DNA of 24,000 nt from Candidatus Bathyarchaeia archaeon (GTDB taxonomy: Archaea > Asgardarchaeota > Heimdallarchaeia > JABLTI01). The notes beneath the pieces are model-generated. The model had not been told where the DNA came from. It was given only the letters and a program-made list of their open reading frames with translations, and searched no databases. Numbering within the stretch: position 1 is the first letter of the stretch; every line of letters begins with the position of its first letter. The stretch is from assembly GCA_035528035.1 (NCBI GenBank), contig DATKZI010000032.1:10375-34374 (forward strand). Direction: 5' to 3'. This document shows positions 1 to 22,006 of this stretch, in pieces. The position numbers and the translations under genes were made by a program.

Positions 1-2952
1 TATAAGATCAATTATACGGGAAATTTTCTTGGGATCAATAAATTTGAATGTTTGTTCATAAAATTCCAAAGGATATCTTTTCATACAATCAACTGCATGT
101 GACTCATCATCAACTTCTCGAGGATTAAGAATGATTCCCAAGGTTAATGGTGCGTCCATTGAACCTCCACGTGTTATTGGTAGAAATTGTTTTGAGAAAT
201 CCAAAAACCCTTCAAGCATTAATATAATAGCATCCTCATCTCCATCACAATTTCTTCTTTTTGCTGCTTGCCAATAAGGATGAGCTAGATTTCCTTTTAC
301 AGAGGTAAAACCAATTATCCTTCCAGTTATTCCAGATGAAGTATGTGGTGCTAACCCTATGACAAAATGCCCTATTAAATCTGATATTCTTGTTATATTA
401 TAATATCTTGGTATACCATAAACAAGTTCTAGCATATCATCAACATATTTGGAAACACGGTAAAGAAATTCACCATTATCAAGATTTAGAACAACATCTT
501 GGATTTTTAATTCGAGTATTTGATCATCATTAATTAATGGATCATTCTCTATATCGTGAGTGTAACCTAAATTTATTAATTGTTCAATAGAAGCATTAAC
601 TTCTTTTGGTTTGAAATGCATTAGAGGTATGTCTGTAGAGTCAAAACGAATTGTTCCATCCTTATAAACGTTCAATCCATGGCGTGCTCGTAGAAATCCT
701 TTTTCAAGTATTTCAGGTATTTTTCCTCTGTTCATTAATTTTTTAACACCTTTAGTGTCAGAAGGAATTGATCCTCCAAGAGCTTTCTTGACACGCGTAA
801 TATCTTCTCTAAGATTAACGCCTCGTTCTGAATATGTTACTGTTAGTCGATTGCATGATTTGCAAAATTCCTCATTAGTTTCTCTTCCACAACTTGGACA
901 ACTTCTAATATATTCAGTTCTTTTATTACATTTAGTACAAATAGGCATATGAGTAATTAGATGACAATTTTTACATTCTCTTTGAGCAACAGTAATAGTA
1001 ATAATCTCATTTTTGGCTGCTTCCAGTATAAGTCTATTATTTCCTCCTCCTTCCATTTCTAACGGAAATAGTGAATGGATTGGTGGATTCATTTTCCTTT
1101 CTTTTGCTTTTTCTGGTCTGCCCATTCTTGCACCAGTGTAAATAGGTGATTTTAATTTAATCTCAAAAGGAACCATGTGTGTGAAGGGAGGACCAGCTTC
1201 TCGTTCAATATCTTGAGAGTTTATTTTAGGATTTTTTAGTTGCATACAATGATCTAGGATTAAATTACTCTCTTCAATCACAATATGTTGTTTTATTACT
1301 TTATGTGGTAAACCTATACGTTCAAAAATACGTTTCTGTTTAAATTCCTTCATTAAAACTATTGCATCTCTATTTCTGGTAAATTCTTGTATTTTTTCCT
1401 TATCATTAATTCTTGAGATTATCATATCACTTCGTAATTCAAAAAACTCGTCAAAAGAAATATCATGCCAAGCATAAGTAAAAAAGGGATGTAATGGAAT
1501 CATAAATTCGTAACTAAAAGATAACGCTTCTTCTTGAGTGGGTTTGGTTTTCAATGGATTTGTCAGAAATTCGAGTAAACGGTTCGAATTCATATTAAGA
1601 TGTTTGGCTGCTTCATCTATATTATTACCAAATTTTTGCTTTATTCGTGATTCTAAATATAGTACCCACCACTCTTCTACAAAACCAGATGGAATTAAAG
1701 GATGGTTATTTTCTAGGAATTCACCAAAACCAACTAATAGGTCACCCAAGAAAAGTACCTCTTTTATTTTCTTATCATATTTTGTTGCTTGCTCATAGCT
1801 ATCAATTCTAAGGACCGAACCATCTTTCAAAAGTACAACTGGACCTTCAATTGAATCCACTGGCATAACAACACTCCCCTTACCAGGTCTTTCAGTTCGA
1901 ATATGTGTTCCTGGAGCAAGAAATTCCATAACTACTTTCATAGTAGCAGGATGGATTCCTATACCAGCTAAACCAGTATTCCTGGAGTGGCCATATCTTA
2001 TTCTAAATCCTCCCGGTTTTGATGGGTGAGAAAATATTGGTCGACCAGCAATTACATCTTTTATATACCCAAAAGACGGTTGTGTTTTTGCTTTTGCTTC
2101 TTCTTTTTCTTTATTTTCTTCAGCTTTTGCTACAGTTGCTTTAACGGATTTTAACCATTCCCAATCGGTTAATCCTACTGCATTAACAGTTTTGAGAATT
2201 TTCATAGCACGTCCCACAATACCATCATTCAAAACAAGACAAGCTCCACCTCTTAATGAATTAGTTTCAATTCGTGGTAAATCTCGAAAAGCTGAAACTT
2301 CATCAGGATTTGTACTTTCACCTGTGACTTCTACGGGTAAGTTCATTACAGCATATTCTATTTGTTCTGGAGTTGTAGGACTTTGTAAATGCATTACTCT
2401 ATTATATAAATCAACTTCTTCAACAAAACGCTTCATCTCTTGTCTAGTTGCTTTATATCGTGATAGATTAAGCGCTTTTCTTACATGATCAGATATTAAG
2501 ACTGTTAGAGCTGCTTCAGTACCACCAGCTGAACGAATAGGACCAGCGAAATAAACAGCCAAATATTTTGTGTTATCCTCATTACGTTTGATCTTAACTT
2601 TAGCAATCCCTTCTAAAGGAGCGGCAGTTACACCTTCTGTAAGAATCGCTAAAGCAGTTCTAATTGCTAAATCAGCTTTTTGTTCGTCGGGAAGATCACC
2701 TATTAATTTACCCATAGCTAGTTCTTGAGCTATCTTAAAAGCAACATTTTCTCTATCCATTTGTTTACTTAGACTACTAATTCGATCAGCGATACCCTTG
2801 ATACCCATTAATCCTTCAACTTTACCTGCAACATCTTTCGCAAGATGAATTTCAGGTTCAATTTCTGGATCTAAACCTTTTTCTCTTGCCTTGCTTGCCA
2901 AAGCATATAATTTATACACTTCTTCTTCTAGCATTTGAAAATAAGCTTTCAT
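1..2952 (-). CDS. polC: DNA polymerase II (PolD) large catalytic subunit DP2; first ~984 codons, C-terminus runs off the left edge
   Basis: Absent from the ORF track because no stop codon lies in the window. Manual minus-strand translation from the ATG at 2952..2950 is open to position 1: MKAYFQMLEEEVYKLYALASKAREKGLDPEIEPEIHLAKDVAGKVEGL... It contains YFAGPIRSAGGTEAA, GRPIFSHPSKPGGFRIRYGHSRNTG, a Cys cluster (CKNCH..CTKC..CPSCG..CKSC) and the DP2 catalytic KRRNCDGDEDA motif. In-frame TTG codons at 2970 and 2979 are alternative starts; an upstream in-frame stop lies at 3004-3006. Confidence 0.93.
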   Translation of the reverse strand, partial: MKAYFQMLEEEVYKLYALASKAREKGLDPEIEPEIHLAKDVAGKVEGLMGIKGIADRISSLSKQMDRENVAFKIAQELAMGKLIGDLPDEQKADLAIRTALAILTEGVTAAPLEGIAKVKIKRNEDNTKYLAVYFAGPIRSAGGTEAALTVLISDHVRKALNLSRYKATRQEMKRFVEEVDLYNRVMHLQSPTTPEQIEYAVMNLPVEVTGESTNPDEVSAFRDLPRIETNSLRGGACLVLNDGIVGRAMKILKTVNAVGLTDWEWLKSVKATVAKAEENKEKEEAKAKTQPSFGYIKDVIAGRPIFSHPSKPGGFRIRYGHSRNTGLAGIGIHPATMKVVMEFLAPGTHIRTERPGKGSVVMPVDSIEGPVVLLKDGSVLRIDSYEQATKYDKKIKEVLFLGDLLVGFGEFLENNHPLIPSGFVEEWWVLYLESRIKQKFGNNIDEAAKHLNMNSNRLLEFLTNPLKTKPTQEEALSFSYEFMIPLHPFFTYAWHDISFDEFFELRSDMIISRINDKEKIQEFTRNRDAIVLMKEFKQKRIFERIGLPHKVIKQHIVIEESNLILDHCMQLKNPKINSQDIEREAGPPFTHMVPFEIKLKSPIYTGARMGRPEKAKERKMNPPIHSLFPLEMEGGGNNRLILEAAKNEIITITVAQRECKNCHLITHMPICTKCNKRTEYIRSCPSCGRETNEEFCKSCNRLTVTYSERGVNLREDITRVKKALGGSIPSDTKGVKKLMNRGKIPEILEKGFLRARHGLNVYKDGTIRFDSTDIPLMHFKPKEVNASIEQLINLGYTHDIENDPLINDDQILELKIQDVVLNLDNGEFLYRVSKYVDDMLELVYGIPRYYNITRISDLIGHFVIGLAPHTSSGITGRIIGFTSVKGNLAHPYWQAAKRRNCDGDEDAIILMLEGFLDFSKQFLPITRGGSMDAPLTLGIILNPREVDDESHAVDCMKRYPLEFYEQTFKFIDPKKISRIIDLI

Positions 2953-3102
2953 GTTATCAGAGGCAGCCAATTCAACCAATTTAGTTTCACAACTTGTATT
3001 TGTTTATCGTTTCACGTGTTTAGTTTATCCTATTTCTTAAGTAGAAAATTCTATTTAATAATTCTAGTACTACGATTCACTTTAGTTTTTTTTAGTTTTA
3101 AA

Positions 3103-4698
3103 TTAAGGAATTAACAAATAAGCATTTTCTATAATTGATTTCCCTATCAATGAAGGAATTAATCCTAAAATAATTAATCCTAATGCAACGATCGTCCCAA
3201 TAATTGATGTCATTGATACATCTTGACTTAATCCTCCCGAGATTAAAGTTGAATCCTGATCTGGTTTATCAAATAAAAGATACTTGATGACAACGAGATA
3301 ACTGATAAGCATCAGTACTAGGATAAAGATAATTATTATTGTGTAACTGATATAATTCAATTGGATCAATGTAAATAGTAGCATATAGAGATTAACTCCA
3401 CCAAACATAGGTAATAAACCAATCATTGAAGCTAATCCGACAATTAGATTAAATGTTGTTAATGGATATTCTCTTCCCACACCACGAAGATCGATTAGTT
3501 TTTCACTTCTATTCCTTTTAATCATCAAATTATCTTTAGCAATAAAAGCAAGAAATGATGTTATACCTATGTTGATTATCTGTAAAATACTATAACCAAA
3601 GCATTCCTTAACTGAAAAGAGTGTTTCCTCGGTTCCTGAGTTAACCATTCCACCTATAGATATTCCAGTTAAAATCACACCAATATTTACAAAGATTGTA
3701 TAGATGATAATTTTTGATAAAGTAATATTCTCTTTATCTTTTCGAGTTACCTGATAGACAAGAACAAGAACTCCTTCTAAAGCTGTCATTAGTCCAATTA
3801 TCGCTAAAATTAATGGATAATTAATTATCGTCATTTGTGTTGTATCAAAGAATGAAAATAATACCTTGAAGATTGACAACAATGCTAAACCACTAACTAT
3901 TCCCACTGAGAATACTTGTGTACTAGCACTTGATTTTTCTATTGCATTTGGCATCCAAAGATTCAGCATGAAAATATTTGCAAGTAGACCAAATCCTACA
4001 ATAGTTAGTGCTATTATTAAATAGATAATTGCTTTTGCATCTGTAGTGATTCGTTCTGAATTCAATAAAACAACGTCATCATGAATATAATCATAATTTA
4101 GTGTGCCAAATAAACCATAACATAATATTACTGCAGTTAATATGAATACTACACTCAAACTAATCAAAATAAAAGCTCGCATTCCACCTTCTCTAAGATC
4201 CTCTTGACGTTTCTGAAATGCAATTAATGTTATAAGAGATATCCCAATTATTATCCAGCCAAGTAGTGTTGTAAAGAAATCATTTGCTAAAACACTGGCA
4301 TTAATTCCTGTAACTAAGAAGAGTATTAGTCCGATATAAATAGGTCCTTCAGCTTTACCTCTTTGCTTGACGGATTCATAGAAGAGTATTAACACAACAA
4401 TTATGTTTAGCACTAGAAGGAAGATACTGGTAAAACCATCCACTTTAAATTGAACGCCACTAGGAGCACTAAATTCTGCCCCTAAAACAGTTTTATAGAA
4501 TCCAAACAAAGCACCAGAGCCATTTTTAATTCGATAATACAAAGCAGCCAATATCATAATATTAGCGATAATACCCCCAGCAGCTATTTCTCCTGAAAAT
4601 CCTTTCAACCATTTCTTTAATCCAATAATGAATATAGCCATTATGAATGGTAGAAATATTGTTGATAAGATTAGAAAGTTAACAGAAATTTCTGCCAT
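3103..4698 (-). CDS. Antiporter-like polytopic membrane subunit, MrpD/NuoM/NuoN family, highly divergent
   Basis: ORF track 3103..4761 (552 aa), TM-rich throughout. NLWMPNAIEKSSASTQVF aligns to the W-L-P-D-A..PT..S core of proton-conducting membrane transporter subunits. I prefer the ATG at 4698 (MAEISVNF...) because it forms a TAATG stop/start overlap with the upstream gene. The longer ORF would overlap that gene by 64 nt. Confidence 0.75.
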   Translation of the reverse strand: MAEISVNFLILSTIFLPFIMAIFIIGLKKWLKGFSGEIAAGGIIANIMILAALYYRIKNGSGALFGFYKTVLGAEFSAPSGVQFKVDGFTSIFLLVLNIIVVLILFYESVKQRGKAEGPIYIGLILFLVTGINASVLANDFFTTLLGWIIIGISLITLIAFQKRQEDLREGGMRAFILISLSVVFILTAVILCYGLFGTLNYDYIHDDVVLLNSERITTDAKAIIYLIIALTIVGFGLLANIFMLNLWMPNAIEKSSASTQVFSVGIVSGLALLSIFKVLFSFFDTTQMTIINYPLILAIIGLMTALEGVLVLVYQVTRKDKENITLSKIIIYTIFVNIGVILTGISIGGMVNSGTEETLFSVKECFGYSILQIINIGITSFLAFIAKDNLMIKRNRSEKLIDLRGVGREYPLTTFNLIVGLASMIGLLPMFGGVNLYMLLFTLIQLNYISYTIIIIFILVLMLISYLVVIKYLLFDKPDQDSTLISGGLSQDVSMTSIIGTIVALGLIILGLIPSLIGKSIIENAYLLIP

Positions 4699-6617
4699 TA
4701 AATTGAACCTCCCATTATTAGGAATATACATATTAATAATACCACTGAGAGAACTGCCCAAATAATACTACCAAAAGGTGCCTTAATCCGAGTCCAAGAG
4801 AAGAATCGTCCTAAATAGTCAATTGGTCTAAAGATCAATAGCTCATAAATTTTATCCAAATATAGACCGTTTACAAAGAATTTCTTAAAGGGCAAAATAA
4901 ATTTACTGTTCTTAAATTTGAATAGAATATTTCCTTCCCCATCTCGATAAATAAAATAACCTGCAAGAAATGCTGATATAGATGTCAGTAAAATAATAGG
5001 GGATGAAATAAAATTAGCAGTAAAGGGTGAATCATAATTTAAGGTGAAAATTCGTCCAAGCAATCCTGAAAATAGAAATGGTTTGGGATAACCTATGAGA
5101 ATGAGAACCAGACCAGATAACATCGACCAACCTAAAGCTGCTCCCGTTGAGATAAGAGAAAGTGATTTCAAAGGTCTGGTAGAATAATCCTCAACCATTT
5201 CTCCATAAAATATCTGCATATAAACTTTCATTATAGCAAAAATAACAAACATAGAGCAAATTATTGTTAAAATATAAAGTCCCCAATGTGTAGGAATATT
5301 ACTTGTACGTAATGCTTCAAATATCATATCTTTTGAAAAATACATACTTGATGGGAAGATTCCTGCAAAACTTGCTATGGAGAAAACACCAAATAAATGT
5401 AAAAGAGGGTGTTTGTCTTTTATACCATTAACTCGAGAGATGTCTTTAATTCGCAAGGATTCAATGACTGATCCAAAAACAAGAGCTAGAGCTATTACCG
5501 TCGGTGCACCTGCTATAATTTGAAAAATAGTTCCAACAAGTCCAATTGTAGTGTTGGAGCTAAAACTCAATAAAGCTAGACTAAGTTGTGCAATTCCTGC
5601 ACCAATTGTTACTCGATTAATGTTTTTAGCAACTAATATGAAGCCCACAACTACAACTAACGAAAGTATAGCTATCCAACCAATCAACATAAATGGAGCA
5701 GAATGATATAGCTCAATATTTGTACCTTCTTCTAACCCCTTGCGCGAAAATAATGGATAAAAAGTACATAGAAGAAATAAGCCTATATTTCCCACTGTAA
5801 CTGAAATTAAGCTGGATGAGATTGGGAGTGGTGCTTTAGAAATATCATAATCCGATTTTTGACCACCTATAGGCCATAAAAGAAAAGGTATTTGAGCTGA
5901 TTTAATTAGAGCACCTATTGCAATAAATAACTTGATTAGCAATCTTGTAGTCCTACTTGAGTCACCAATAATCCTTATCGGTTGTTGGGACCAAACATTG
6001 ATAATATTACTAATTACTGGTGTTTTGAATGCTACAAGAATAAAGCTGAATCCAATTAGAAGGAATATATCGCCAATTACACTCATGATCAAATATCTTA
6101 TTGCTGCTTTTCCTGCTTTGTCTCCTTCTTCACCCGATTTCTTATACCAGTGTGAAATAAGGAAAAATGCTCCAATAGCTGCAACTTCGATTCCTCCAAA
6201 CATCCAAAACAAGTTATTAGAGAAGATTATCATCATCATTGCTGAAACTGTTAATTGAAAGAAGAACCAATATCGTGTGCGATTTCGATCATAACTCATA
6301 TAGGATATTGAGTATAATGCTAATAGAGCTGAAAGACATATGATAGCACATGCTAAAACAATTGAGACTTCATTGATACGTAAACCAATAACTATCCCTG
6401 GCAACCAACTTACAGAATAAGTGGCTGGAACGTGAAGATACTTGAATAATATAAATGAGACTATTATTGATGGAAGGAAGATCAATATAAATATCAACCA
6501 ATCTCGAGTCTTACCTTCTGCTGCAACAGCATCTTCAAGTCTTCCAAAGAAAATCCCTAAAAGTGTACCTACTGCAGGAATAATAATCAACAGTGCTGCT
6601 AATAATAAACCACTCAT
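4698..6617 (-). CDS. MrpA/NuoL-like antiporter-type membrane subunit
   Basis: 639 aa. It has a NuoL-type N-terminal region (YMSYDRNRTRYWFFFQL). FGGIEVAAIGAFFLISHW matches GWE.vGl.SylLI. IKSAQIPFLLWP matches KSAQ.P...WLP. FSKDMIFEAL matches F.SKD.I. C-terminal GLYLDKIYELLIFRPIDYLGRFF plus a final TM resembles the NuoL/MrpA lateral-helix segment. ATGA overlap with the upstream gene at 6614-6617. Confidence 0.85.
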   Translation of the reverse strand: MSGLLLAALLIIIPAVGTLLGIFFGRLEDAVAAEGKTRDWLIFILIFLPSIIVSFILFKYLHVPATYSVSWLPGIVIGLRINEVSIVLACAIICLSALLALYSISYMSYDRNRTRYWFFFQLTVSAMMMIIFSNNLFWMFGGIEVAAIGAFFLISHWYKKSGEEGDKAGKAAIRYLIMSVIGDIFLLIGFSFILVAFKTPVISNIINVWSQQPIRIIGDSSRTTRLLIKLFIAIGALIKSAQIPFLLWPIGGQKSDYDISKAPLPISSSLISVTVGNIGLFLLCTFYPLFSRKGLEEGTNIELYHSAPFMLIGWIAILSLVVVVGFILVAKNINRVTIGAGIAQLSLALLSFSSNTTIGLVGTIFQIIAGAPTVIALALVFGSVIESLRIKDISRVNGIKDKHPLLHLFGVFSIASFAGIFPSSMYFSKDMIFEALRTSNIPTHWGLYILTIICSMFVIFAIMKVYMQIFYGEMVEDYSTRPLKSLSLISTGAALGWSMLSGLVLILIGYPKPFLFSGLLGRIFTLNYDSPFTANFISSPIILLTSISAFLAGYFIYRDGEGNILFKFKNSKFILPFKKFFVNGLYLDKIYELLIFRPIDYLGRFFSWTRIKAPFGSIIWAVLSVVLLICIFLIMGGSI

Positions 6618-7027
6618 ACTATTTCCACTCCTTTATCATCTTTTTGAGTTTCTTCTTTTTCAGATGTAGAAGTTACTTCTTCTTGAGGTTTTTTAATTAA
6701 CCCCTCAAACTCGAAGTTGAAATCTAATATTGTAGAATCACCACTCTGTTTTAATTGTCTTTCAATGGATGTTCCTACAATCAGAAAAACTAATCCAATT
6801 ACTACAATAAATATTGATAGTGTGTGTGCTAAAGGTGAAGGGTAGAGTGTAGAACCTTCATTTCCTAATCCAAAAGAGAGTAATAATAAATTTGCTGCCA
6901 TCAGTAATATCTCTATACTAAATATGACACGAAGAAAATGTTTGCTTGTAATTAACCCATAAATACCTATACCAAATAATGTTATAACAGCTATTAATGT
7001 ATAAGGAAAAAGCGTAGACCAATCCAT
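6614..7027 (-). CDS. MrpC/NuoK-like small membrane subunit with acidic C-terminal tail
   Basis: 137 aa with three predicted TM segments. FSIEILLMAANLLLLSFG resembles the NuoK/MbhG TM2 with its Glu. YPSPLAHTLSIFIVVIGLVFLIVG aligns to MrpC dPLPQALiLTAIVI.f. The tail is acidic (KKPQEEVTSTSEKEETQKDDKGVEIV). TAATG overlap with the upstream gene at 7027. Confidence 0.7.
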   Translation of the reverse strand: MDWSTLFPYTLIAVITLFGIGIYGLITSKHFLRVIFSIEILLMAANLLLLSFGLGNEGSTLYPSPLAHTLSIFIVVIGLVFLIVGTSIERQLKQSGDSTILDFNFEFEGLIKKPQEEVTSTSEKEETQKDDKGVEIV

Positions 7028-7362
7028 TAATAGCTTCTCCTCCTTTGTTCCTGCATTGGTTTTGAAATCATATGTTTATACCCTACAAAATAATATGCTG
7101 AAATTACTCCCAATAGAACAATTATAAAAATCAATAATAAATCTAAAACTCTAAAAGTCCAAAGATATTTACCAATTTGCTTTACTAAAATAACAAAATT
7201 AAAACTTTCTGGTGTCGCTCCTCCTGAATGGAATAAACTCGAATCTAAATCAAGTAATGATATTGTAATGATTAATACAAATAATCCTGAAACAATTAAT
7301 CCTATACCTCGGACAAACCATTGATTTGTTCTTCGCTTAGTTTCATCACTCATTTTAAACAC
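7027..7362 (-). CDS. Small membrane protein, possibly MnhB-domain (MrpB/MbhE)-like
   Basis: 111 aa, 2-3 TM. WTFRVLDLLLIFIIVLLGV loosely matches the yRg.DTlgE..Vl motif of MnhB-domain proteins (R and D kept, Glu position is Ile). Its position immediately upstream of the MrpC-like gene matches Mrp/Mbh gene order. The assignment is tentative. Confidence 0.4.
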   Translation of the reverse strand: MFKMSDETKRRTNQWFVRGIGLIVSGLFVLIITISLLDLDSSLFHSGGATPESFNFVILVKQIGKYLWTFRVLDLLLIFIIVLLGVISAYYFVGYKHMISKPMQEQRRRSY

Positions 7363-7368
7363 CCTTGA

Positions 7369-7791
7369 TTATATTTCCCTTAAATCTCTTTGAACTGTGC
7401 GTTTAGATCTTACCTTTGCTCGGTCGATTAGCATCAAACTAAAGAATATTAGAATGACTACGAAGAGGATAAATGGCCATATATCTCTTAACGATAAGTT
7501 ATTCTTAAATCCAAAAAATGATACCATAAGAAAAATTGCACACACGCTGAAACTAATGATATAAACTGTATACAGATATAAATCATTTAGATGTTTACCA
7601 GTAGTTTTTACTTTAGTTATTGGTTCTTTAGTATCCTCAAATGTTTGGGATTGAGTTTCATTTGTTGGTTCCATCTTTTCTGTATCCTTATCCTTCTCTA
7701 TAACAGAGAAAAGGGTCATTAAGATAAATATTATTATCCCAAATAAAGCTAGAAATGTTCCCAATACCTTAATAGTCAATCCAATGAACAT
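7369..7791 (-). CDS. Membrane protein of unknown family; first gene of the coupled membrane-subunit block
   Basis: 140 aa, ATG start. An N-terminal TM is followed by a ~45-aa acidic/Thr-rich loop (EKDKDTEKMEPTNETQSQTFEDTKEPITKVKTTGK), 2-3 more TM segments and a basic tail. It is 6 nt from the next gene and 56 nt downstream of the 896-aa gene. No MrpE/F/G motif recognised. Confidence 0.5.
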   Translation of the reverse strand: MFIGLTIKVLGTFLALFGIIIFILMTLFSVIEKDKDTEKMEPTNETQSQTFEDTKEPITKVKTTGKHLNDLYLYTVYIISFSVCAIFLMVSFFGFKNNLSLRDIWPFILFVVILIFFSLMLIDRAKVRSKRTVQRDLREI

Positions 7792-7847
7792 ATTTACCCA
7801 ACTATTATAGCTCTATATCAAGCATAAAAGCTTTTATTATTTATATT

Positions 7848-10538
7848 CTAATTGGTTATTTTCGTGAAAGATAATTGACTACAAATTTGATTATATGTTT
7901 GTAGTAATAAATATTGTAGGTTTGATATTCCACCATGTATTTTTTTACCCATCTTATTTATTGTTATTAAACCAGGTTCAATTGTTTGATATGCTCTTCT
8001 AAAGGCATCTGAAATTATTAGTTCTGTTAAACTATTAATTTGTTGGTTTTCAAACGTCAGATAGGAATATACTCGACCTATTATCACTGGTTTTTCTTCT
8101 TCTGAAATAATGAAAAACTTTGATATTTCTTCTGAAATTATAGGAGGTTGAATTGGCGAGAAACTGGACAAATAATTTTTCTCATCGTCTGGTTTTGATA
8201 GATGTATTGTTGTGAAAAGTCTCAATGGTTTATTTAGGAGTAATCTATCACCTATTAAATTATATAATTCGTCTTTGAAATAATAACAAGATTTCATAAA
8301 TTGATACCTCTCAATATCACTATTGGGCAAGCTTTCTAATCTCTTATTAATTTCATCATTAACTCCTGATCGTAAAAATCTTGTAATGATATTTTCATGA
8401 ATCGGGAGATTTTCTATGTCAGTAATTTCCAAACCCAAACGAAAAACTGTATCAATTACTTGATCAAAATCAAGATTCCATTTTCTAAAGTTAGTAAATA
8501 TATCCCGAACTTCTTTGCTATATTCTGAATCCTTTTGAGGTAGTGGAACCGTTAAAAGTTGCATTGAAGTGATGTTTGTTGTTAATCCTTTAAAATTAAC
8601 AGATGTTGCTTCTGAAATTAAATCTAATTCTTTTTCCGAGAGGTTTTTGTTAGCATTCTTTAATTCATCAATTAATTTTCTAGTATATGGTACACTGATA
8701 TCTTGTATTCTCCCAAGGAATCCTGATACAAGGTATGCTTTCTTATTTTCACTAGTAATTCTGCCTTCCACTGCATCTGTTTCAATTTGAGTTACAATAT
8801 TAATTATACGTTCAGATGTCTTTCTAAATTGTTCATTCACATGTTCTACATCTATCGTTAATTTTCTTTCGGGGGTATATTCAATATTCGAATCAGGATC
8901 GAAAATTTTCAACTTTGCCTCAATATCATCAATAATCCTACTGAGCTGACCAATTAACCATGTTCTTGGACTAGAAAATGCTTGTATTATATCGAAAATT
9001 AATCCCATTTCAATTGTTAAGGATTCTGAAATATTGTAAAAAAACATTCCATCATTTGATATAACGGGAAGATTTTTCTTATCAATTGAAATGTTACCAT
9101 ATAGATAATCATGAATCCAGCTATAAATTCTACTTATGGCTCGTATTAAAGACTGGTTTTTTGTGATATTACTTTCTGGAGTTGCTGAAGGTAAATTGAT
9201 ATTTATTTTTTTAATTTCCTGATTTTCGGTAGTGATTACCTCTTTATCTTCAATAGGAGATTTCATGTATGTTGGTATACTGGGAGCGGTATTAGCTTTT
9301 CCTTTGGAAGATTTTTTAGGTGATAGGATTTCCTTTTGAGATTTCAAATCATCAAGATTTAGTGGTTTAGAAAGAGCTGTATTGATTATGTTCACAAATT
9401 GATTGAGATAACTTTTTGGGACGATTGTTGATTTAATATCAATAATGGCAGATAAGAATTCTTTTGCTAAATCAAAATCAATTAATAATTTAACAAATTG
9501 CTTCAAGTAAGTTTGTTCAAATGGATGATCACCTAATTCTAATAGAAAATATTTAACAAATTGCCAACCAATTAATTTTTCATTGCCATGTTTCAATTGT
9601 GAAATATTCTGTGAAATACTTCGTAAACTAATTCCAGAAGGACCTCGAATTGGTAAAAGATTGCAAACAAAATTCTCGAAAACTTTTGGTAATTCATTTT
9701 CATAAAAAATTTCTATGCGTTTTATGATATCATCAGAATAGAGTATTAAAGGCATTAAACCTGCCTTTAGAATATAATTGAACAAAGAAGCTGAAACTTG
9801 ATTTTTAAATTCTAATGTTTTTAGATCATTAGTAAATTTCTCTTTAATTACTTGGACATAATTCCAATATTCTTTTTTCCCAAAGAAATTGATAAAATCA
9901 AATGTTGGAAAATAGTCCGGGTAATATTGTTGTTCGATCCATTGAGAAAATTCACGTATTTGATATTCCAATAAAGAATCATTAAAGGTTAAAATAGTAA
10001 ATTTATCTTTTTCTTGTATGAAATTTGTATTTTCGTAAAACAGAGATTTCTTTGATCTTTTGCGATAATCGTTAATGGCATCAGCTAAAATTTGAATAGT
10101 TTCTTGATAAGAAGGAATATAACCTTCAATATTTCCTTTTATTAATTTCTTCGCTAAATGACTTCTTTGACAGATTATAACCATAATAGAATAACATAAT
10201 TCGCTTAAAGCTAACTCTTGTTCTCTAGATAATTCACCCTCTCGAACAATTATAGCAACACGCATTTGAGCACCATGTTTAATTTCAGGACCTATTAAAC
10301 CTAAAATATCATTCATTTGTGTTAAATGGCGAATGTATACATGAGCATTATAGAGCTCCGAATGTCGAAGTTCTCCTTGTTTTAATAATTCCTGAAACAT
10401 ATTTGACATGCCTGTAAGGGCGCCACTTAGTAATGTTGCATCAGAATCATCACCTTGAAAAACCCCTGCAGTAATAAAAGGAACGGACCCAGTCATAACT
10501 ACTAAATCGATTTTTTTAGCGATTATTTCTGTGCCCAT
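7848..10538 (-). CDS. Large (~896 aa) soluble protein of unknown function; N-terminal alpha/beta domain with a longin/roadblock-like secondary-structure pattern (tentative)
   Basis: ORF track 7848..10547 begins at a GTG. The ATG at 10538 (MGTEIIAKK...) is preceded by GGTGA with 5-nt spacing, so I prefer it. The first ~130 aa read as beta-beta-alpha-beta-beta-beta-alpha (LVVMTG / PFITAGV / ATLLSGALTGMSNMFQELL / LRHSELY / HVYIRHL / RVAIIVRE / EQELALSELCYSIMVII). A central Lys/Ser/Pro/Thr-rich linker (SPKKSSKGKANTAPSIPTYMKSPIEDKE) follows. The rest is Asn/Ile/Lys-rich and probably helical, with no catalytic motif recognised. Confidence 0.7.
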   Translation of the reverse strand: MGTEIIAKKIDLVVMTGSVPFITAGVFQGDDSDATLLSGALTGMSNMFQELLKQGELRHSELYNAHVYIRHLTQMNDILGLIGPEIKHGAQMRVAIIVREGELSREQELALSELCYSIMVIICQRSHLAKKLIKGNIEGYIPSYQETIQILADAINDYRKRSKKSLFYENTNFIQEKDKFTILTFNDSLLEYQIREFSQWIEQQYYPDYFPTFDFINFFGKKEYWNYVQVIKEKFTNDLKTLEFKNQVSASLFNYILKAGLMPLILYSDDIIKRIEIFYENELPKVFENFVCNLLPIRGPSGISLRSISQNISQLKHGNEKLIGWQFVKYFLLELGDHPFEQTYLKQFVKLLIDFDLAKEFLSAIIDIKSTIVPKSYLNQFVNIINTALSKPLNLDDLKSQKEILSPKKSSKGKANTAPSIPTYMKSPIEDKEVITTENQEIKKININLPSATPESNITKNQSLIRAISRIYSWIHDYLYGNISIDKKNLPVISNDGMFFYNISESLTIEMGLIFDIIQAFSSPRTWLIGQLSRIIDDIEAKLKIFDPDSNIEYTPERKLTIDVEHVNEQFRKTSERIINIVTQIETDAVEGRITSENKKAYLVSGFLGRIQDISVPYTRKLIDELKNANKNLSEKELDLISEATSVNFKGLTTNITSMQLLTVPLPQKDSEYSKEVRDIFTNFRKWNLDFDQVIDTVFRLGLEITDIENLPIHENIITRFLRSGVNDEINKRLESLPNSDIERYQFMKSCYYFKDELYNLIGDRLLLNKPLRLFTTIHLSKPDDEKNYLSSFSPIQPPIISEEISKFFIISEEEKPVIIGRVYSYLTFENQQINSLTELIISDAFRRAYQTIEPGLITINKMGKKIHGGISNLQYLLLQTYNQICSQLSFTKITN

Positions 10539-10742
10539 ATATTTCACCTAATATAATTATATTAACAACAAATACTTTTTAGATAGCTAAAAAAATCTTT
10601 CCTTGATATCTTGGAAAAAAATAAACTGTGAATCAATTATTTTTTTCACGGGGTTTTTATAAGTAAAAACACATTTGATTAAATTTCAAAATCACTAAAT
10701 GAAAATAAAAATAGAAAAAAAAGTATAGAAAAACATCAAAAA

Positions 10743-11474
10743 CTAGATTTGATGCATCCATAACAAACTTCTATAAACACCGATAATTCTATCTTTAAGC
10801 TCTTGGGCTGCTTTTGCTTCATTAAATTTCTCTAAACCTTTGAGGACTTTTCGACAATAATCACATTCTTCACCATTAATGACTCTTTTTTCATCGATTT
10901 CTAAAAAGACTTCTGATTCATAATAGTCCTTTAAGTTTGGAGCAATACCAATGATATCATAATCTCGAGGATCAACAAAAGTCTCAGTATACCAGCTTAT
11001 TCGTAAATCCTTTTTGTGAACAAAAAGTTTTAGCGTGGCAATAGCTATTTCCATGAGGGCTAAATCACCTACAACTATAACAGTTTTACCTGTCATAATG
11101 GGTTTCATAACATATTCTAAGTTCCCACCAAATGTTTTGAGCATTAAGGTGATGCTAGCTCTTGCTTCTGGTCTTGGTGTCCCAGCAGCTGCTGATGCTG
11201 TACTGGATGCTGATGCTTGATATGTTGTTTCAGCAGCTGATCTCGCAGCAACTTCTTCTCTGCTTGTTCTTGCAATGGTTGATGCTCGATGCTGTCGTAA
11301 TGCAAGATTTTTATCAAGAAGAAGAGTAATAACATGATCATCATGTAGAAAAGATACTTGCCATAACCCACCGACTTGTGTCTTCAAATCATCTACATAA
11401 ATTGGTATAGTTATATCCTTATCACAGCCTTTACATGTGAGAGATACTTCTTTTAATGGTACCCTAGCGGACAA
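10743..11474 (-). CDS. Hypothetical two-domain protein with Ala/Ser/Thr-rich linker
   Basis: 243 aa. TTG start preceded by GGAG about 10 nt upstream, and no in-frame ATG before residue ~110. The N-terminal beta-rich part carries CKGC. The locally GC-rich linker reads ARSAAETTYQASASSTASAAAGTPRPEARA. The C-terminal alpha/beta part contains GKTVIVVGDLALMEIAIATLKLF...DIIGIAPNL and a late CDYC. Confidence 0.6.
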   Translation of the reverse strand: MSARVPLKEVSLTCKGCDKDITIPIYVDDLKTQVGGLWQVSFLHDDHVITLLLDKNLALRQHRASTIARTSREEVAARSAAETTYQASASSTASAAAGTPRPEARASITLMLKTFGGNLEYVMKPIMTGKTVIVVGDLALMEIAIATLKLFVHKKDLRISWYTETFVDPRDYDIIGIAPNLKDYYESEVFLEIDEKRVINGEECDYCRKVLKGLEKFNEAKAAQELKDRIIGVYRSLLWMHQI

Positions 11475-13576: not shown

Positions 13577-13927
13577 TTATTCAATAAATCTGGCAACTAA
13601 TACGAGGATACCACCAAGGATAACGATATAACCGCCAATACCAAACATGAGTACACCAAGTATAATGATTATAATTGCCCAAATGATTTTATCGAAATCA
13701 AAGAATTTCAAAAAAGTCTTTAGACCTATTAGAAGTGCTAACGCACTTGCTGCGAGGGCAACTATAGGACCAACGATTCCAGTTAAGAAAATTCCTAGAA
13801 AACCAGGTCCGCCTAAATACCAACTTTGGAAAAAAGCCTTTCCAAGAAAGTTGAGTATTCCAAAAACTACGCCAACTATTCCTCCAACTAATGTTGCGAG
13901 GAAGCCAATCTTATCTAATTTAACCAT
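13577..13927 (-). CDS. Small Gly-rich integral membrane protein, unknown function
   Basis: 116 aa with ~4 TM segments (GFLATLVGGIVGVVFGIL, GFLGIFLTGIVGPIVALAASALALLIGL, IIWAIIIIILGVLMFGIGGYIVILGGILVLV). ATG start, with a hairpin plus T-run downstream. Confidence 0.6.
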   Translation of the reverse strand: MVKLDKIGFLATLVGGIVGVVFGILNFLGKAFFQSWYLGGPGFLGIFLTGIVGPIVALAASALALLIGLKTFLKFFDFDKIIWAIIIIILGVLMFGIGGYIVILGGILVLVARFIE

Positions 13928-13960
13928 TGTTGTAATAACTTCCTTATAGTTAGTAATTGA

Positions 13961-13985
13961 TGGAAATTATCCACATTGTGTGGAT
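13961..13985. promoter_or_regulatory. Perfect palindrome ATCCACA-TTG-TGTGGAT preceded by TGGAAATT
   Basis: The palindrome spans 13969-13985, 42-58 nt upstream of the 116-aa membrane-protein gene start (13927). It shares TGGAAA..TTATCC(R)CATT with 11560-11578. Confidence 0.35.
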
Positions 13986-14285
13986 TGAAGTATAAACCAA
14001 ATTATCAAATAAAAGGATTATGCACTTTAACAGTAAAAGAGTAAAATCATAGTTTGAAATTAAATTTTTATCGTTTTTAGGGAAATCTTCACATGAAATT
14101 TCCTAATGTAAAAATCACCATTATTAGTTTAATATCAAAGATTTTTAGAGAAAAGTAGAATTATTATTACTTAAGATGAAGGTAGTATTAATATACTAAA
14201 AGTAAAAAGCTATTGAATATACCCCAAAGACATAACAACCAAAAAGATTTTAAAATAAAATATGACGCAAATATAACGTAACGCT

Positions 14286-14360
14286 GCCGCGTTAGCTCAG
14301 CGGTAGAGCTCTCGGCTGTTAACCGGGTGGCCACAGGTTCAAATCCTGTACGCGGCGCCA
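14286..14360 (+). tRNA. tRNA-Asn (anticodon GTT) with genomically encoded CCA
   Basis: Cloverleaf folded by hand. Acceptor GCCGCGT/ACGCGGC. D arm GCTC-AGCGGTA-GAGC. Anticodon arm CTCGG-CTGTTAA-CCGGG. Variable loop TGGCC. T arm ACAGG-TTCAAAT-CCTGT. Discriminator G, then CCA at 14358-14360. A T-run (TTGTTTTCT) follows. An A/T-rich TATA-like TTTTAAAATA lies at 14248-14257, about 30 nt upstream. Confidence 0.95.
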
Positions 14361-14368
14361 ATTGTTTT

Positions 14369-14626
14369 CTAAAATTCTTCGTCGATTTCATGTAAGATTT
14401 CTAATGCTTTCTCAAGTTTATTGTTAATATAAAAACTCATATCACCATAATCCTCATCATGTAAAATTCTTGAAACATCTATAAAAGCTTCTTCTAATGC
14501 TTCATGAGCCATTTTCATTAATTCTTCTTTCTCCTCTTCCTCTTCAATCGCAGCGAATTTTGCTCCCACAAATAAAGAACCATTTCCTACTGCTTTTACA
14601 AAAAAGAAATTAAAATACTCAGGCAT
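14369..14626 (-). CDS. Small acidic hypothetical protein
   Basis: 85 aa. The ATG is preceded by GAGGA about 9 nt upstream. A hydrophobic N-terminus (MPEYFNFFFVKAVGNGSLFVGAKFAAI) is followed by a strongly acidic helical region (EEEEEKEELMKMAHEALEEAF...HEIDEEF). It is convergent with the tRNA; its stop lies 8 nt after the CCA end. Confidence 0.5.
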   Translation of the reverse strand: MPEYFNFFFVKAVGNGSLFVGAKFAAIEEEEEKEELMKMAHEALEEAFIDVSRILHDEDYGDMSFYINNKLEKALEILHEIDEEF

Positions 14627-14789
14627 TTTACTTTTCCTCGTACATTTCAGTATTATTTTTCTTTAAAATTTCTTTCCTTTAAGGTGCTTTTTTTAATATT
14701 CATATGAAGCGATATTCTTATAATAAATCTCTTTTCTTTATCTTTTATACCTTTGACCTTCATAGATTTACAAGTAGGGATATTACCAA

Positions 14790-15845
14790 ATGGCTATCAT
14801 TGTTGACGAGAATAAAACTGTTAGAGATTATAACTCCAGGGAAGAAGAAATCCTTGAAACACTTAAATTAGTTGAAGGTTCTAATCTCTGGGATATTACC
14901 TTTCGAAGAATGAAGAGAGATAAATTAGGTATGTTTGGTTTTGGTGTTGTAATCTTTCTGTCAATTATTGCTATTGTCGCCTTTTTAATCATACAGTATG
15001 ACAAATGGTTTGGTTTGGCAAATCCTACTAATGATCCTTGGGACATGCATAATTATTATATTGAAATTTGGATTCCTGGTACAGAAAAATATCTTAGATT
15101 AATTGCTCATCCAAGACATATTATTGCAGGAGATGAAACACTTCCTCCCTCTTGGAAATATCCTTTTGGTACTGATGCTATGGGACATGATATTTTTTCT
15201 AGAATGATTTTTGGTACTCCTTTATCTCTTGCTTTAGGATTATCAGGACAATTCTTTACAACAATAATCGGTACGGCTGTAGGAGCTATATCAGGTTATT
15301 ATGGTGGTTTATTTGATGATATAATCCAACGTATAAATGAGGTAATTATTGGCCTGCCTGATTTTATTTTGTTTATCTTTGCAGTTGCCCTTTTCCGGGA
15401 AGTATCCCAAACAATTGAAGGGGGATACTATATAGTTGTGCTGACGATATTATCTCTGATTAGCTGGGGTGGTACAAGTCTAATTGTTCGAAGTACTGTT
15501 TTGAGTCTGAAAGCTCGAGAATTTATAGAAGCTGAACGAGCTCTCGGTGCTAGCCCCCGCCGAATCATCTTCAAACACATTATACCAAATGCATTATCAC
15601 CAATTATTATTATTACAACATTGGGTATTGCTGGTACTATAATGAGCATTACTGGATTAGCTTTCTTTGGATTTGGTGATCCAACAGCTGTTTCTTGGGG
15701 TGATGACCTAGCAACCTATAGAGATCAATTAATGACCCATTGGTGGATGCCCACATGGCCTGCAACGATGATTTTTATTACTATGTTGGGATTCAATCTC
15801 ATGGGCGATGCTTTGCGAGATGCATTAGATCCAAAATTAAAATAA
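14790..15845 (+). CDS. ABC transporter permease, OppC/DppC (peptide/nickel) type
   Basis: 351 aa. N-terminal LWDITFRRMKRDKLGMFGFGVVIFL (OppC_N-like). PFGTDAMGHDIFSRMIFG precedes TM2. Classic EAA loop EAERALGASPRRIIFKHIIPNALSPIII. Confidence 0.85.
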   Translation: MAIIVDENKTVRDYNSREEEILETLKLVEGSNLWDITFRRMKRDKLGMFGFGVVIFLSIIAIVAFLIIQYDKWFGLANPTNDPWDMHNYYIEIWIPGTEKYLRLIAHPRHIIAGDETLPPSWKYPFGTDAMGHDIFSRMIFGTPLSLALGLSGQFFTTIIGTAVGAISGYYGGLFDDIIQRINEVIIGLPDFILFIFAVALFREVSQTIEGGYYIVVLTILSLISWGGTSLIVRSTVLSLKAREFIEAERALGASPRRIIFKHIIPNALSPIIIITTLGIAGTIMSITGLAFFGFGDPTAVSWGDDLATYRDQLMTHWWMPTWPATMIFITMLGFNLMGDALRDALDPKLK

Positions 15846-15872
15846 AGAAGAGAATTATTTTTCTTCTTTCAT

Positions 15873-16658
15873 TTATTCTTTTGAGAATTTTACTACCCGA
15901 GTGTTATTTGTTAAAGTAATAATATCATTTCTAGAAATCGGCACTATATTAATGAAATTTAATCGGCTGCAAAATTCTATATCATCAATGTAATTTAAAT
16001 CAATCAATTTTTTACCATGAGCAGTTTGATACAATAGATCGTAAAGCGTAGTAGTTTTTAGTAATTCCTCTAAATAAGCTATTTCTTCAGTAACTTCTTG
16101 AGCTAGAGTAACACCTATATTCTGGAATTCATTTGCTATAATTAATCCACCCAATTGATCTTCTGTAATAGTATTGTTTTGAATATTACCTTCTGAAAAT
16201 GCTGGAATGATTACTACTTTAAGTTGTCTCTCATCTTCTTGAGCTATGTCAATTACTTTTTGTGCGATAACTTTAGCATTAACTATTGAACCAATTAGGA
16301 TATATTTTGCTCCTATTGATTCCACTACCCTCCTTGCTCCAGTAGAGGAAGTAAATGCTGTTGCTGGTTTTGCAAAATTAATTTTAGAACTAACTTCAAC
16401 AGGGCTATTGCCAAAATCAAATCCTTCTAACATCAAGCACCCTCGTTCACCCATAAGGAGAGTGTCAAATTCAACTTTTACTTGGCGTGTATCTTCAACC
16501 TCCTTTGCAACATAGAAGGTGTTTAAACCTTGCCGCATAGCAGTAGGTATTGTTGTGCTTGCTCGTAAAACATCTACGATTATTGCTACACCATTTGTTG
16601 TTTCTGAAGCTAATTTCGATCCTTCATTATTTCCTAAAAGAACCACTTCAATTGACAT
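15873..16658 (-). CDS. comB: 2-phosphosulfolactate phosphatase (ComB) family protein
   Basis: 261 aa. Contains IIVDVLRASTTIPTAM, GERGCLMLEGFDFGNSPVEV and TEDQLGGLIIANEF, which match recalled ComB-family motifs (DvlRaSTti, GERng..i.GFdlgNSP, ED.l.aG). The physiological substrate is not inferable. Confidence 0.75.
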   Translation of the reverse strand: MSIEVVLLGNNEGSKLASETTNGVAIIVDVLRASTTIPTAMRQGLNTFYVAKEVEDTRQVKVEFDTLLMGERGCLMLEGFDFGNSPVEVSSKINFAKPATAFTSSTGARRVVESIGAKYILIGSIVNAKVIAQKVIDIAQEDERQLKVVIIPAFSEGNIQNNTITEDQLGGLIIANEFQNIGVTLAQEVTEEIAYLEELLKTTTLYDLLYQTAHGKKLIDLNYIDDIEFCSRLNFINIVPISRNDIITLTNNTRVVKFSKE

Positions 16659-16809
16659 AGTGACCAGAATTTTTTGTGTTTTTCCTCTTTTTAAGCACTA
16701 GTACTTATATTGGTATGAAAGAAAAATAACCAAGAAATAGAAAAAATGAAAAAGGTTAATAAATTAGTATCTCAAAGATAGCAAATCGTATGAGCTTGTA
16801 GTCGAACAC

Positions 16810-16828
16810 TCTGACTTTTTGAGTCAGA
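16810..16828. promoter_or_regulatory. Perfect 7-bp inverted repeat TCTGACT-TTTTG-AGTCAGA in the divergent comB / HEAT-repeat intergenic region
   Basis: Read directly from the sequence. It lies about 80 nt upstream of the HEAT gene start and about 150 nt upstream of comB. It could be an operator or an RNA hairpin. Confidence 0.3.
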
Positions 16829-16905
16829 TAATTATCTTAAATGAAATCAAATAAACTGATAATATACTTAAGGAATCAATCAGACTGTTACTAGGAGGAT
16901 TAATT

Positions 16906-18003: not shown

Positions 18004-18013
18004 CAACAATCAT

Positions 18014-18042
18014 ATTATGAGCTTTGCTCATAATTATTTTTT
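18014..18042 (+). terminator. Hairpin plus T6 run downstream of the HEAT-repeat gene
   Basis: ATTATGAGC-TTT-GCTCATAAT forms a perfect 9-bp stem (18014-18034). It is followed by TATTTTTT with a T6 run at 18037-18042, 11 nt after the stop codon. Confidence 0.55.
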
Positions 18043-18109
18043 ATTTATTAATGTAATAATAACAGATTCTTAGTAATAGATAAAAACTATTTTTAGAAAT
18101 AAACGAATT

Positions 18110-19549: not shown

Positions 19550-19805
19550 TAGCGAAAAATTAGTATGCAAATGTATAAGAACCTCAAGAAGTATATATAA
19601 TTGAACGGAAAAATAATCTGCGGAAGATTTTCCCAAAAAGCATTTTAACAGTAACATTTGTATGTTAACTTGAGGTTTTTAAACAATATTTTCCATTCAT
19701 AAATGATTAGCATTAAAAGAGCGCAGTCATAGAAAAAATTTACCTGTTAATAAAAAACAACAAAATTGAACGAATAAGGTACAAGTAGAAAAACAAGGTG
19801 TTTGA

Positions 19806-20087: not shown

Positions 20088-20135
20088 ATTTAAGATAAAA
20101 AATCTAGAAAATAGAATAACTGAAAAATAAAGCAA

Positions 20136-21941: not shown

Positions 21942-22006
21942 TTAGAGTTCATTTAATGGAAACTCCTCATGTTTAGTTTAAAAATAGCTAACTGCAGATT
22001 TTCAGA

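Follow-up and report, generated by a model that had tools for sequence, protein, structure and literature searches.

A conserved five-gene membrane module of Heimdallarchaeia, related to the complex I and group 4 hydrogenase membrane arm and depleted of canonical proton-path residues

In complex I, Mrp antiporters and membrane-bound hydrogenases alike, ions are universally moved by antiporter-like subunits, whose buried Lys, Glu and His residues form a chain that is generally regarded as indispensable. A 24,000-nucleotide (nt) stretch of archaeal DNA (contig DATKZI010000032.1, positions 10,375 to 34,374; G+C content ~31%; hereafter the window) carries five successive minus-strand open reading frames (ORFs) for membrane proteins related to these systems, at 7791-3103. 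They raise the questions of what kind of assembly they encode, which partners it has, and whether it can still move ions. A preliminary description of the window had proposed a stand-alone, reduced antiporter-like module of Mrp/complex I membrane-arm type. The placement in the Mrp/complex I membrane-arm superfamily was confirmed, and it is well supported that the module is a derivative of the membrane arm of complex I and group 4 hydrogenases, with the composition A′-J′-K′-L′-N′ and ~38 transmembrane (TM) helices in total; it is not a canonical Mrp antiporter. The A′-J′-K′-L′-N′ assignment follows from the gene order, the NuoL-type C-terminus of the L′ subunit, the weak NuoA-likeness of the first protein (X) and the RxxD helix of NuoJ/MbhE type in the second (Y), features that argue for a complex I/group 4 hydrogenase-type arm and against a reduced Mrp operon.

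The block was delimited from the ORF listing and by inspection of the sequence. The first gene, X (A′; 7369..7791, minus strand, as are all five), encodes 140 amino acids (aa) from an ATG start, with three predicted TM helices. It is followed by Y (J′; 7027..7353; 108 aa, 2 TM), K′ (6614..7027; 137 aa, 3 TM, NuoK/MrpC-like by PF00420), L′ (4698..6617; 639 aa, NuoL/MrpA(N)-like, 16 TM in its structure model) and N′ (3103..4698; 531 aa, 14 TM, MrpD/MbhH/NuoN-like). The coupling of consecutive genes through TAATG at 7027 and 4698 and ATGA at 6614-6617, as first described, is seen in the sequence, and in relatives of the window as well the last four genes are spaced from a 4-nt overlap to a 6-nt gap. 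The start of Y is most likely the ATG at 7353, which has AAGGGTG upstream and matches public gene calls of 108 aa on an identical contig; use of a GTG at 7362 would give the 111 aa reported earlier. With Y starting at 7353, the gap between X and Y is 15 nt and not the single 6-nt gap originally noted. N′ starts at the ATG at 4698, with GGAGG upstream (a TTG at 4761 would extend it to 552 aa). An AT-rich spacer of 56 nt (7792..7847, minus strand) separates X from a gene for a soluble 896-aa orphan on the same strand (7848..10538), a variable neighbour. The spacer contains AAAGCTTTTATGCTTGATATAG ~25-45 nt before the ATG of X and, judged by sequence, may hold a putative archaeal promoter for the five genes.

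Two other gene clusters were used as points of reference. The first, an environmental operon of the order A-B-CD-H-I-J-K-L-M-N (L017; Ga0315535_1000608, 1393-10927), is the nearest canonical relative of L′ and K′. It has a full three-pump arm and, with both NiFe cysteine motifs (RICGICNSCH and DPCFSC) intact in the fused NuoCD, is identified as a complex I-like group 4 hydrogenase; such hydrogenases have recently been described for Heimdallarchaeia (bioRxiv 10.1101/2024.07.04.601786). The second (L029) is a cluster of the MBH/MBS/Mbx type with the order MrpE-F-G-MbhD-MbhE/MnhB-K-H-H′-NuoH-B-C-D, and a protein encoded in it (P0138, 24% identity) is the nearest outgroup of N′. In the hydrogenase operon L017, NuoK too ends in an acidic tail, and Gln takes the place of the TM11 Lys in NuoL.

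The assignments first proposed for the three larger proteins (MrpC/NuoK-like, 137 aa; MrpA/NuoL-like, 639 aa; MrpD/NuoMN-like, 531 aa) agree with the Pfam and NCBIfam matches. L′ matched PF00361 (2.9e-24) and PF00662, and its match to the NCBIfam NuoL model (6e-45) covered model positions 5-558 of 615, including the C-terminal region. A profile of the L′ family searched against the PDB retrieved NuoL (8e9g_L, 2.6e-40), Nqo12 (1e-34) and MrpA (7e-34), with DabB2 as a weak match (3.7e-7), and the alignment to Nqo12 ran through the GxYxD motif. Identity to any canonical NuoL is ~24-25%. The AlphaFold2 (AF2) model of L′ (predicted local distance difference test, pLDDT, 79.5; predicted template-modelling score, pTM, 0.86) matched ND5/NuoL with TM-scores of 0.75-0.78 and MrpA with 0.72 in Foldseek searches. 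Beyond TM15 the model continues with short helices, an amphipathic helix (residues 587-609) and a last TM helix (613-635), so that L′ has the lateral helix and TM16 anchor of a complex I NuoL. The distance from GxYxD to TM16 is 33 residues, as against 84 in the three-pump NuoL of the hydrogenase operon; the lateral-helix linker is much shortened and, by analogy with Mrp, the helix would span one neighbour only. No match to PF13244 or PF20501, both of which are carried by genuine MrpA matches, was found in L′; the protein ends after TM16 at residue 639 and lacks the C-terminal (MbhD/MbhE) domain of MrpA.

N′ matched PF00361 (7e-14) and the MrpD and NuoN NCBIfam models (~1e-22). Its family profile retrieved MbhH (6cfw_H, 6.9e-24), MrpD (6z16_D, 1.1e-23) and MbsH (2.7e-18) from the PDB, all ahead of NuoN. 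The AF2 model of N′, built from 16 sequences, was poor (pLDDT 59.8, pTM 0.49), and a Foldseek search with this model, which returned antiporter-like subunits only at TM-scores of just ~0.36, is a weak consistency check. K′ matched PF00420 (2.4e-13) and the NuoK NCBIfam models (5e-9), with weak matches to MrpC models, and corresponds to the NuoK-like subunit known as MrpC in Mrp antiporters. It is up to 49% identical to the NuoK of the hydrogenase operon across the first ~40 residues. A [LI][DE]F[ND]F motif is conserved in K′, and its acidic C-terminal tail is variable.

The two small proteins at the head of the block are harder to place, and no Pfam or NCBIfam match above cut-off was found for either (Oxidored_q3, Oxidored_q4 and DUF2207_C were all at noise level). 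In X, TM1 leads into a charged loop on the cytoplasmic side; TM2 and TM3 then form a hairpin, and the protein ends in a conserved basic tail, K..SKRTVQ[RK][DE][ML]R. The loop is long and of low complexity, and varies in length and sequence, with a 14-aa insertion in the copy in the window. Of the two acidic soluble extensions reported earlier (in X and K′), what is conserved is therefore the presence of charged cytoplasmic segments, and not the length or sequence of the X loop. In a profile search against the PDB, X retrieved NuoA of E. coli (E = 0.002-0.004) and of M. smegmatis (0.46-1.4); NdhC also stood low in the very short match lists, from which Mrp E/F/G chains were absent. Against the NuoA of the hydrogenase operon the X profile scored 13 bits, a score equalled by 3 of 1000 local shuffles, and the next best of 16 reference subunits scored 1 bit. 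Its scores against MrpF, MrpG, MbhD and NuoJ were not significant (76 of 1000 shuffles equalled the score for NuoJ TM1-3). X is non-acidic at the Asp/Glu positions of the 'FDVE' stretch in TM2 of E. coli NuoA, and its loop has, by eye, no counterpart to the 'ESG / ACGE' motif visible in the NuoA of the hydrogenase operon, which we take to be the canonical motif of the NuoA TM1-2 loop.

Arg68 and Asp71 of Y are invariant and lie where TM2 begins, within the motif W-T-F-R-V-x-D-L. With the Y profile, this RxxD helix aligned with 'YRGFDTLGE' of an MbhE/MnhB protein, a score reached by 2 of 1000 shuffles, and with 'LWNLRSVDVIL' in the last TM helix of the hydrogenase operon NuoJ, a score reached by 17-26 of 1000. 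Weak Oxidored_q3 matches were seen in the C-terminal half of 3 of the 12 members, and profiles built from 12 and then 20 Y sequences returned nothing relevant from the PDB. For the earlier MnhB-like assignment of Y, the alignment of the RxxD helix speaks in favour; however, no PF04039 match was found in Y, and the protein has two TM helices where MrpB has four. A NuoJ has five TM helices and a pi-bulge helix at TM3, while Y has two, and its resemblance to NuoJ is confined to the last helix and the C-terminal half.

NuoJ, MrpA-C and MbhD+MbhE share one common fold, and MrpA-C has three essential carboxylates, E706, D792 and E796 (Steiner and Sazanov, PMC7419157). To judge by their spacing, D792 and E796 would correspond to the Asp and Glu within the 'DTLGE' motif, and the Asp of Y aligns with the first Asp of that motif in MbhE. 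Two readings of the small subunits are suggested by these data. Their position before K′ suggests that X and Y (3 + 2 TM) are a split equivalent of NuoJ or MbhD+MbhE, and in the cluster L029 the split MbhD (3 TM) and MbhE before K form a parallel arrangement. Alternatively, the sequence signals suggest that X is NuoA-derived and that Y is the C-terminal half of a NuoJ. On either reading, the module consists of proximal small subunits together with N and L, and has no MrpE/F/G.

The block is no chance arrangement: genome and metagenome scans and contig look-ups showed it complete in at least 12 further loci, with protein identities of 43-58%. The exact five-gene set, in the order X-Y-K′-L′-N′, is thus conserved with or without the 896-aa gene, which answers the neighbourhood comparison called for in the preliminary description; no extra genes were found inside the block in ~12 loci. 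The flanks are constant as well, with a gene for a 243-aa protein upstream and the gene for the PolD large subunit downstream. Homologues of L′ form 30 clusters at ≥43% identity before a drop to E = 3e-31 and 25% identity (ordinary NuoL), and those of N′ form 17 clusters at ≥39% before the E-value jumps from 1.6e-174 to 3.8e-23. X has seven database relatives, every one a member of the family, and an exhaustive phmmer/HMMER pass over 1.84 billion representatives yielded 12 relatives of Y, all of 99-134 aa. All named loci are from metagenome-assembled genomes (MAGs) of Heimdallarchaeota or the 'Asgard group'; one (L003) is part of assembly JABLTI01, the genome after which the GTDB order that is equated with Gerdarchaeota is named (PMC9723677). 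The data give good support to a five-subunit membrane complex that is inherited vertically and confined to Heimdallarchaeota MAGs.

The 639-aa L′ was found identically encoded on metagenome contigs of 130-150 kb. NCBI proteins identical to L′ and N′ of the window are named from 'Candidatus Bathyarchaeia archaeon', and an N′ homologue of 45% identity (P0125) is named from 'candidate division Zixibacteria', while the remaining named members are all from Heimdallarchaeota. Such contigs have probably been mis-binned in public MAGs.

The loss of catalytic residues from N′, K′ and partly L′, set out below, could mean that the module is a decaying remnant of a lost respiratory complex. The ratio of nonsynonymous to synonymous change (omega; Nei-Gojobori estimates from unsaturated pairs) was 0.22-0.39 for X, 0.13-0.21 for Y, 0.12-0.15 for K′, 0.13 for L′ and 0.11-0.20 for N′, near the 0.10-0.17 of an adjacent major facilitator superfamily (MFS) transporter. 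All five genes are under purifying selection, and the values argue that they are functional genes. The ORFs and their coupling are also preserved in ~12 lineages, down to 43% identity, with many invariant residues, and decay can be discounted almost entirely.

The absence of recognisable MrpE/F/G, hydrogenase or redox neighbours, first noted for the window, extends to ~12 related loci and includes NuoH: in the Pfam-annotated neighbourhoods no NuoH, NuoB/C/D/I, hydrogenase, ferredoxin-type or MrpE/F/G gene was found within 10 kb on either side. In five of these loci (L001, L007, L008, L026, L027), PF00146, PF01058, PF00329, PF00346 and ferredoxin-type genes were searched for over the same distance and not found. 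No gene for a NiFe large or small subunit was present in any module neighbourhood, whereas both reference clusters carry them. The term 'stand-alone' holds for these 10-kb neighbourhoods. Among the homologue listings for L′ and N′, no second match with the same locus-tag prefix appeared, in the course of a survey that included no dedicated search for co-occurring canonical Nuo or hydrogenase genes.

These neighbourhoods bear on whether the block is an ordinary Mrp (CPA3; Mnh/Pha/Sha) Na+/H+ antiporter whose B, E, F and G subunits are too divergent to be recognised. Mrp antiporters are, like the module, redox-independent assemblies of NuoL-, MrpD- and NuoK-like proteins with small subunits: MrpA(N), MrpD and MrpC have counterparts in L′, N′ and K′, N′ matches MbhH and MrpD best, the RxxD of Y is of MnhB/MbhE type, a lateral helix would cross a single MrpD-type neighbour, and no redox partner lies nearby. 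However, Mrp systems have six or seven genes and the module five, with two small proteins (5 TM in total) where Mrp has MrpA-C, B, E, F and G. The module has neither MrpE/F/G nor a fused C-terminal MrpA domain, and no recognisable 4-TM MrpB. No match to PF01899, PF04066, PF03334, PF13244, PF20501 or PF04039 was found in any member; the first three (MNHE, MrpF and PhaG) were searched for in nine X and 12 Y sequences, and the X and Y profiles matched neither the Mrp E/F/G chains in the PDB nor the MrpE/F/G of the genuine Mbx-type cluster L029. X is thus not an ordinary MrpE or MrpG, a finding that had been named in advance among those that would speak against a new set of partners; nor were conserved MrpE/F/G or oxidoreductase genes met beside the block in relatives, or an account of it as a characterised Mrp subtype. 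The MrpD-type charges are all gone from N′, including TM5 Glu, TM7 Lys and TM12 Lys, and the gene order is nuo-like and not mrp-like. An ordinary Mrp antiporter is largely refuted on these grounds and is very improbable. No prior description of the five-gene arrangement was found in the literature searched, and public annotations of its proteins read 'hypothetical', 'proton-conducting transporter membrane subunit', 'NuoL' or 'MnhD'.

Two further known systems resemble the module in part. The MBH/MBS/Mbx clusters include homologues of MrpEFG, a NuoH and a catalytic module of NiFe or related type, all of them missing from the module; a NuoL-type subunit equipped with a lateral helix is absent from these clusters, and X gave no profile match to MbhD. 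The DAB (DabB-DabA) and cyanobacterial CUP systems are a precedent for antiporter-like PF00361 proteins that act with non-redox partners. DAB has a single antiporter-like subunit and neither NuoK nor small subunits, unlike the module, and no DabA-sized (~840-aa) ORF, CupA or other known partner adjoins the module. In the motif scan with L′, five unrelated loci (L019, L020, L023, L024, L025) showed a PF00361-like ORF followed by an ORF of ~840 aa; from ORF size and order, these look like DabB/DabA CO2-uptake pairs.

The closest likeness is to the membrane arm of complex I and of the hydrogenase operon L017, which share with the module the order small subunit, small subunit, K, L, N. L′ is NuoL-type, with GxYxD, lateral helix and terminal anchor TM helix, and K′ is NuoK-type; X is weakly NuoA-like, and the RxxD helix of Y resembles the last TM helix of the operon NuoJ. 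The module differs from the complex I arm in that NuoH and the B, C, D and I subunits are not found near it, in having two antiporter-like subunits and a linker of 33 residues in place of 84, and in a J′ of 2 TM in place of a NuoJ of 5 TM. The charges of the E-channel and central axis of complex I are largely lost from the module, and wholly from N′. We infer that the module was derived from the arm of a complex I-like hydrogenase by loss of B-I, M and part of J.

The state of these charges was established by a residue census, in which family members were aligned with five antiporter-like subunits from the two reference clusters (MbhH, MbhH′, NuoN, NuoM and NuoL) and with PDB chains. No charged residue was found at any of the five canonical proton-path positions in any N′ sequence examined. 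At TM5, where the references have Glu, N′ has Ile, Val, Thr or Ala; at TM7 (Lys/Glu in the references) it has Leu, Phe or Ile; at TM8 (Lys/Glu/Asp) it is uncharged; at TM11 (Lys in three of the five) it has Ser, Met, Ile, Leu or Gly; and at TM12 (Lys/Glu) it has Leu, Ile or Thr. N′ thus matches the fold family of MrpD and has none of its charges (TM5 Glu, TM7 Lys, TM8 Lys and TM12 Lys). In L′, the TM7 Lys and TM6 Asp are each present in 29 of 29 sequences, the TM5 Glu in 22 of 29 and the TM12 Lys/Arg in 25 of 29, and the TM8 His and TM11 Lys/His are gone. Of the charged central axis (TM5 Glu, TM7 Lys, TM8 Lys/His, TM12 Lys/Glu), only the TM7 Lys is therefore invariant in L′, and no Glu-Lys-Lys triad is invariant across its lineages; Leu replaces the TM12 Lys in one clade (L003, L004, L005, L009, L010). 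K′ has the first TM2 Glu (E38) in most lineages, with Gln in two (L007, L015) and Val in two (L008, L026), and in the last two the change coincides with a TM5 Glu to Ala change in L′. The second K′ Glu, equivalent to E72 of E. coli NuoK, is missing from all lineages, so that the pair of membrane glutamates of complex I (E36 and E72 in E. coli) is not kept. The changes at TM5 and TM12 of L′ and at E38 of K′ are thus specific to particular lineages. Taken together, N′, L′ and K′ retain no full canonical proton path throughout the family. What is invariant is the buried TM7 Lys/TM6 Asp pair of L′, Arg68/Asp71 of Y, and the charged tails of X (basic) and K′ (acidic).

With most of the canonical proton-path residues gone, the antiporter-like function first proposed for the block is doubtful. 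In one alternative the module could be an arm encoded in trans, which docks on a complex I-like group 4 [NiFe]-hydrogenase encoded elsewhere in the genome and provides its missing distal subunits, with the short-armed hydrogenases of Heimdallarchaeia as the target. X, Y and K′ do resemble NuoA, NuoJ and NuoK, the subunits in contact with NuoH in complex I, and a hydrogenase operon is the nearest canonical relative of L′ and K′; Appler et al. note that their modelling was limited to annotated ORFs lying adjacent. This alternative is weakened because the module carries its own A′/J′/K′, and a complete operon such as L017 already has an A/J/K set with which these would clash. It is weakened further by the loss of the coupling residues, the route being broken at the acidic TM2 positions of X, the second Glu of K′, and the TM5 Glu and all lysines of N′. 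The module also never adjoins redox genes in ~12 loci, and its lateral helix is sized for a self-contained two-subunit unit. A trans-encoded arm is accordingly improbable.

The preferred reading is that of a reduced, redox-independent ion translocator that uses L′ and a site in Y/K′, to which a probability of roughly 40% is given. It is suggested by the loss of the N′ and K′ charges and of the L′ Glu-Lys-Lys triad together with the few invariant charges that are kept. By analogy with the known complexes, X, Y and K′ would adjoin N′, with L′ at the far end, and L′ would clamp over N′ by means of a lateral-helix linker reduced to roughly the width of one subunit. Such a module would act as an Mrp-like secondary translocator of H+ or Na+ with reduced capacity, in which no more than two sites would operate, one in L′ and the other in the Y/K′ small-subunit region, and N′ would be a structural spacer. 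Mrp itself is the family precedent for a redox-independent assembly of like parts (PMC7419157).

Several points weigh against a translocator. The TM5 Glu and TM12 Lys of L′ and the Glu of K′ are dispensable in some lineages, which sits badly with canonical ion translocation, and a role other than transport would fit equally well. The proposed arrangement of the subunits follows by analogy, the identities of X and Y come from weak similarity (PDB E ~0.002-0.004; 2-26 of 1000 shuffles), and the absence of partners covers the 10-kb neighbourhoods only.

A role of this other kind would be that of an exapted scaffold, in which the antiporter-like fold is kept, pumping is abandoned, and the complex forms a membrane platform or anchor, for instance for cytoplasmic partners that dock on the tails of X and K′; the orphan of ~900-1100 aa encoded just upstream in several lineages is a candidate for such a partner. 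An N′ without a charged axis and a K′ without its second Glu are in keeping with a scaffold, as is the loss of the TM5 Glu, the TM12 Lys and the K′ Glu, each in some lineages, without decay of the genes (omega 0.11-0.2). The cytoplasmic tails are the most conserved features of the small subunits. In five lineages, moreover, the orphan gene lies 22-62 nt upstream and has diverged like the module (39-54% as against 42-45% identity). On the other side, the invariant membrane-embedded charges (TM7 Lys/TM6 Asp in L′, Arg/Asp in Y) would be unusual in a pure scaffold, the orphan is not adjacent to the module in six lineages, and we know of no precedent for a non-transporting antiporter-like assembly. 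A scaffold is on balance unlikely, if a serious contender.

The orphan itself (896 aa in the window) has no Pfam, NCBIfam or PDB match, either singly or as a family profile, and the suggestion of a Roadblock/longin-like N-terminus was not supported by Pfam or profile searches. Its absence at this position in L003, L006 and L008 had raised the idea of an insertion specific to the window, which was ruled out by homologues in L007, L012/L013, L015 and L027. The gene lies upstream of X in five lineages and is missing there from L003, L006, L008, L010, L011 and L026. The flanking protein described earlier as an orphan is thus indeed without a known family, and it is not a random neighbour but a conserved, dispensable one, possibly an optional accessory partner outside the invariant core. 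Family members are 896-1119 aa long, with strongly conserved N-terminal (~400 aa) and C-terminal (~440 aa) regions and a variable Lys-rich middle, and are encoded at 7848-10538 in the window (minus strand), 5450-8809 in L007, 4163-6865 in L027 and 1389-4730 in L015.

Further upstream, the gene for the 243-aa protein (window 10743-11474, minus strand) was found in every locus that reaches that far, and precedes the 896-aa gene where the latter is present. Conservation is far higher in the 243-aa protein (75-85% aa identity, omega 0.05-0.10) than in the module. The protein is without a Pfam or NCBIfam match, carries one CxxC at the N-terminus and one at the C-terminus, and has a linker rich in Ala, Ser, Thr and Arg, which is unusual at 31% G+C. 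On the other side of the module, the PolD large subunit (window 1-2979, minus strand) is intein-free in the window and in L027 (1166-1167 aa), and contains an intein with a LAGLIDADG homing-endonuclease domain (1627-1654 aa) in L003 (13603-18567), L007 (13694-18577) and L008 (13611-18521). The sole Rfam/ARAGORN match in the window is a tRNA-Asn (GTT) at 14286-14360 (plus strand). Genes for an OppC-type ABC permease (14790-15845), a 2-phosphosulfolactate phosphatase homologue (15873-16658), a HEAT-repeat protein (16906-18003) and an EutA homologue (18110-19549) keep their positions in L003, L007 and L008. The window from 13577 to 24000 also holds a gene for a 378-aa DUF7379-like protein below the Pfam cut-off (20805-21941) and several small orphans.

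What is new here is a charge-less antiporter-like subunit, together with depleted proton-path residues, in a Heimdallarchaeia-restricted member of a well-known superfamily. It is a speculative suggestion, though one worth stating, that the module is the first natural antiporter-like assembly to have been exapted from proton pumping, as a scaffold, a sensor or an unconventional conductor with an N′ that is charge-less yet under selection, or else that ions move in L′ across an inert N′. If ions still move, the module would be a natural 'charge-less spacer' experiment that constrains models for the coupling of distant sites, and movement in L′ across an inert N′ would provide a natural test of mechanical (lateral-helix) against electrostatic coupling. 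If no ions are transported, a bioenergetic fold would have been re-used for another role, and such an exaptation would lie in the class of archaea to which the closest relatives of eukaryotes known so far belong. The module also matters when the energy metabolism of Heimdallarchaeia is reconstructed, since these genes, annotated 'NuoL/NuoN/Mrp', could be counted as complex I or Mrp.

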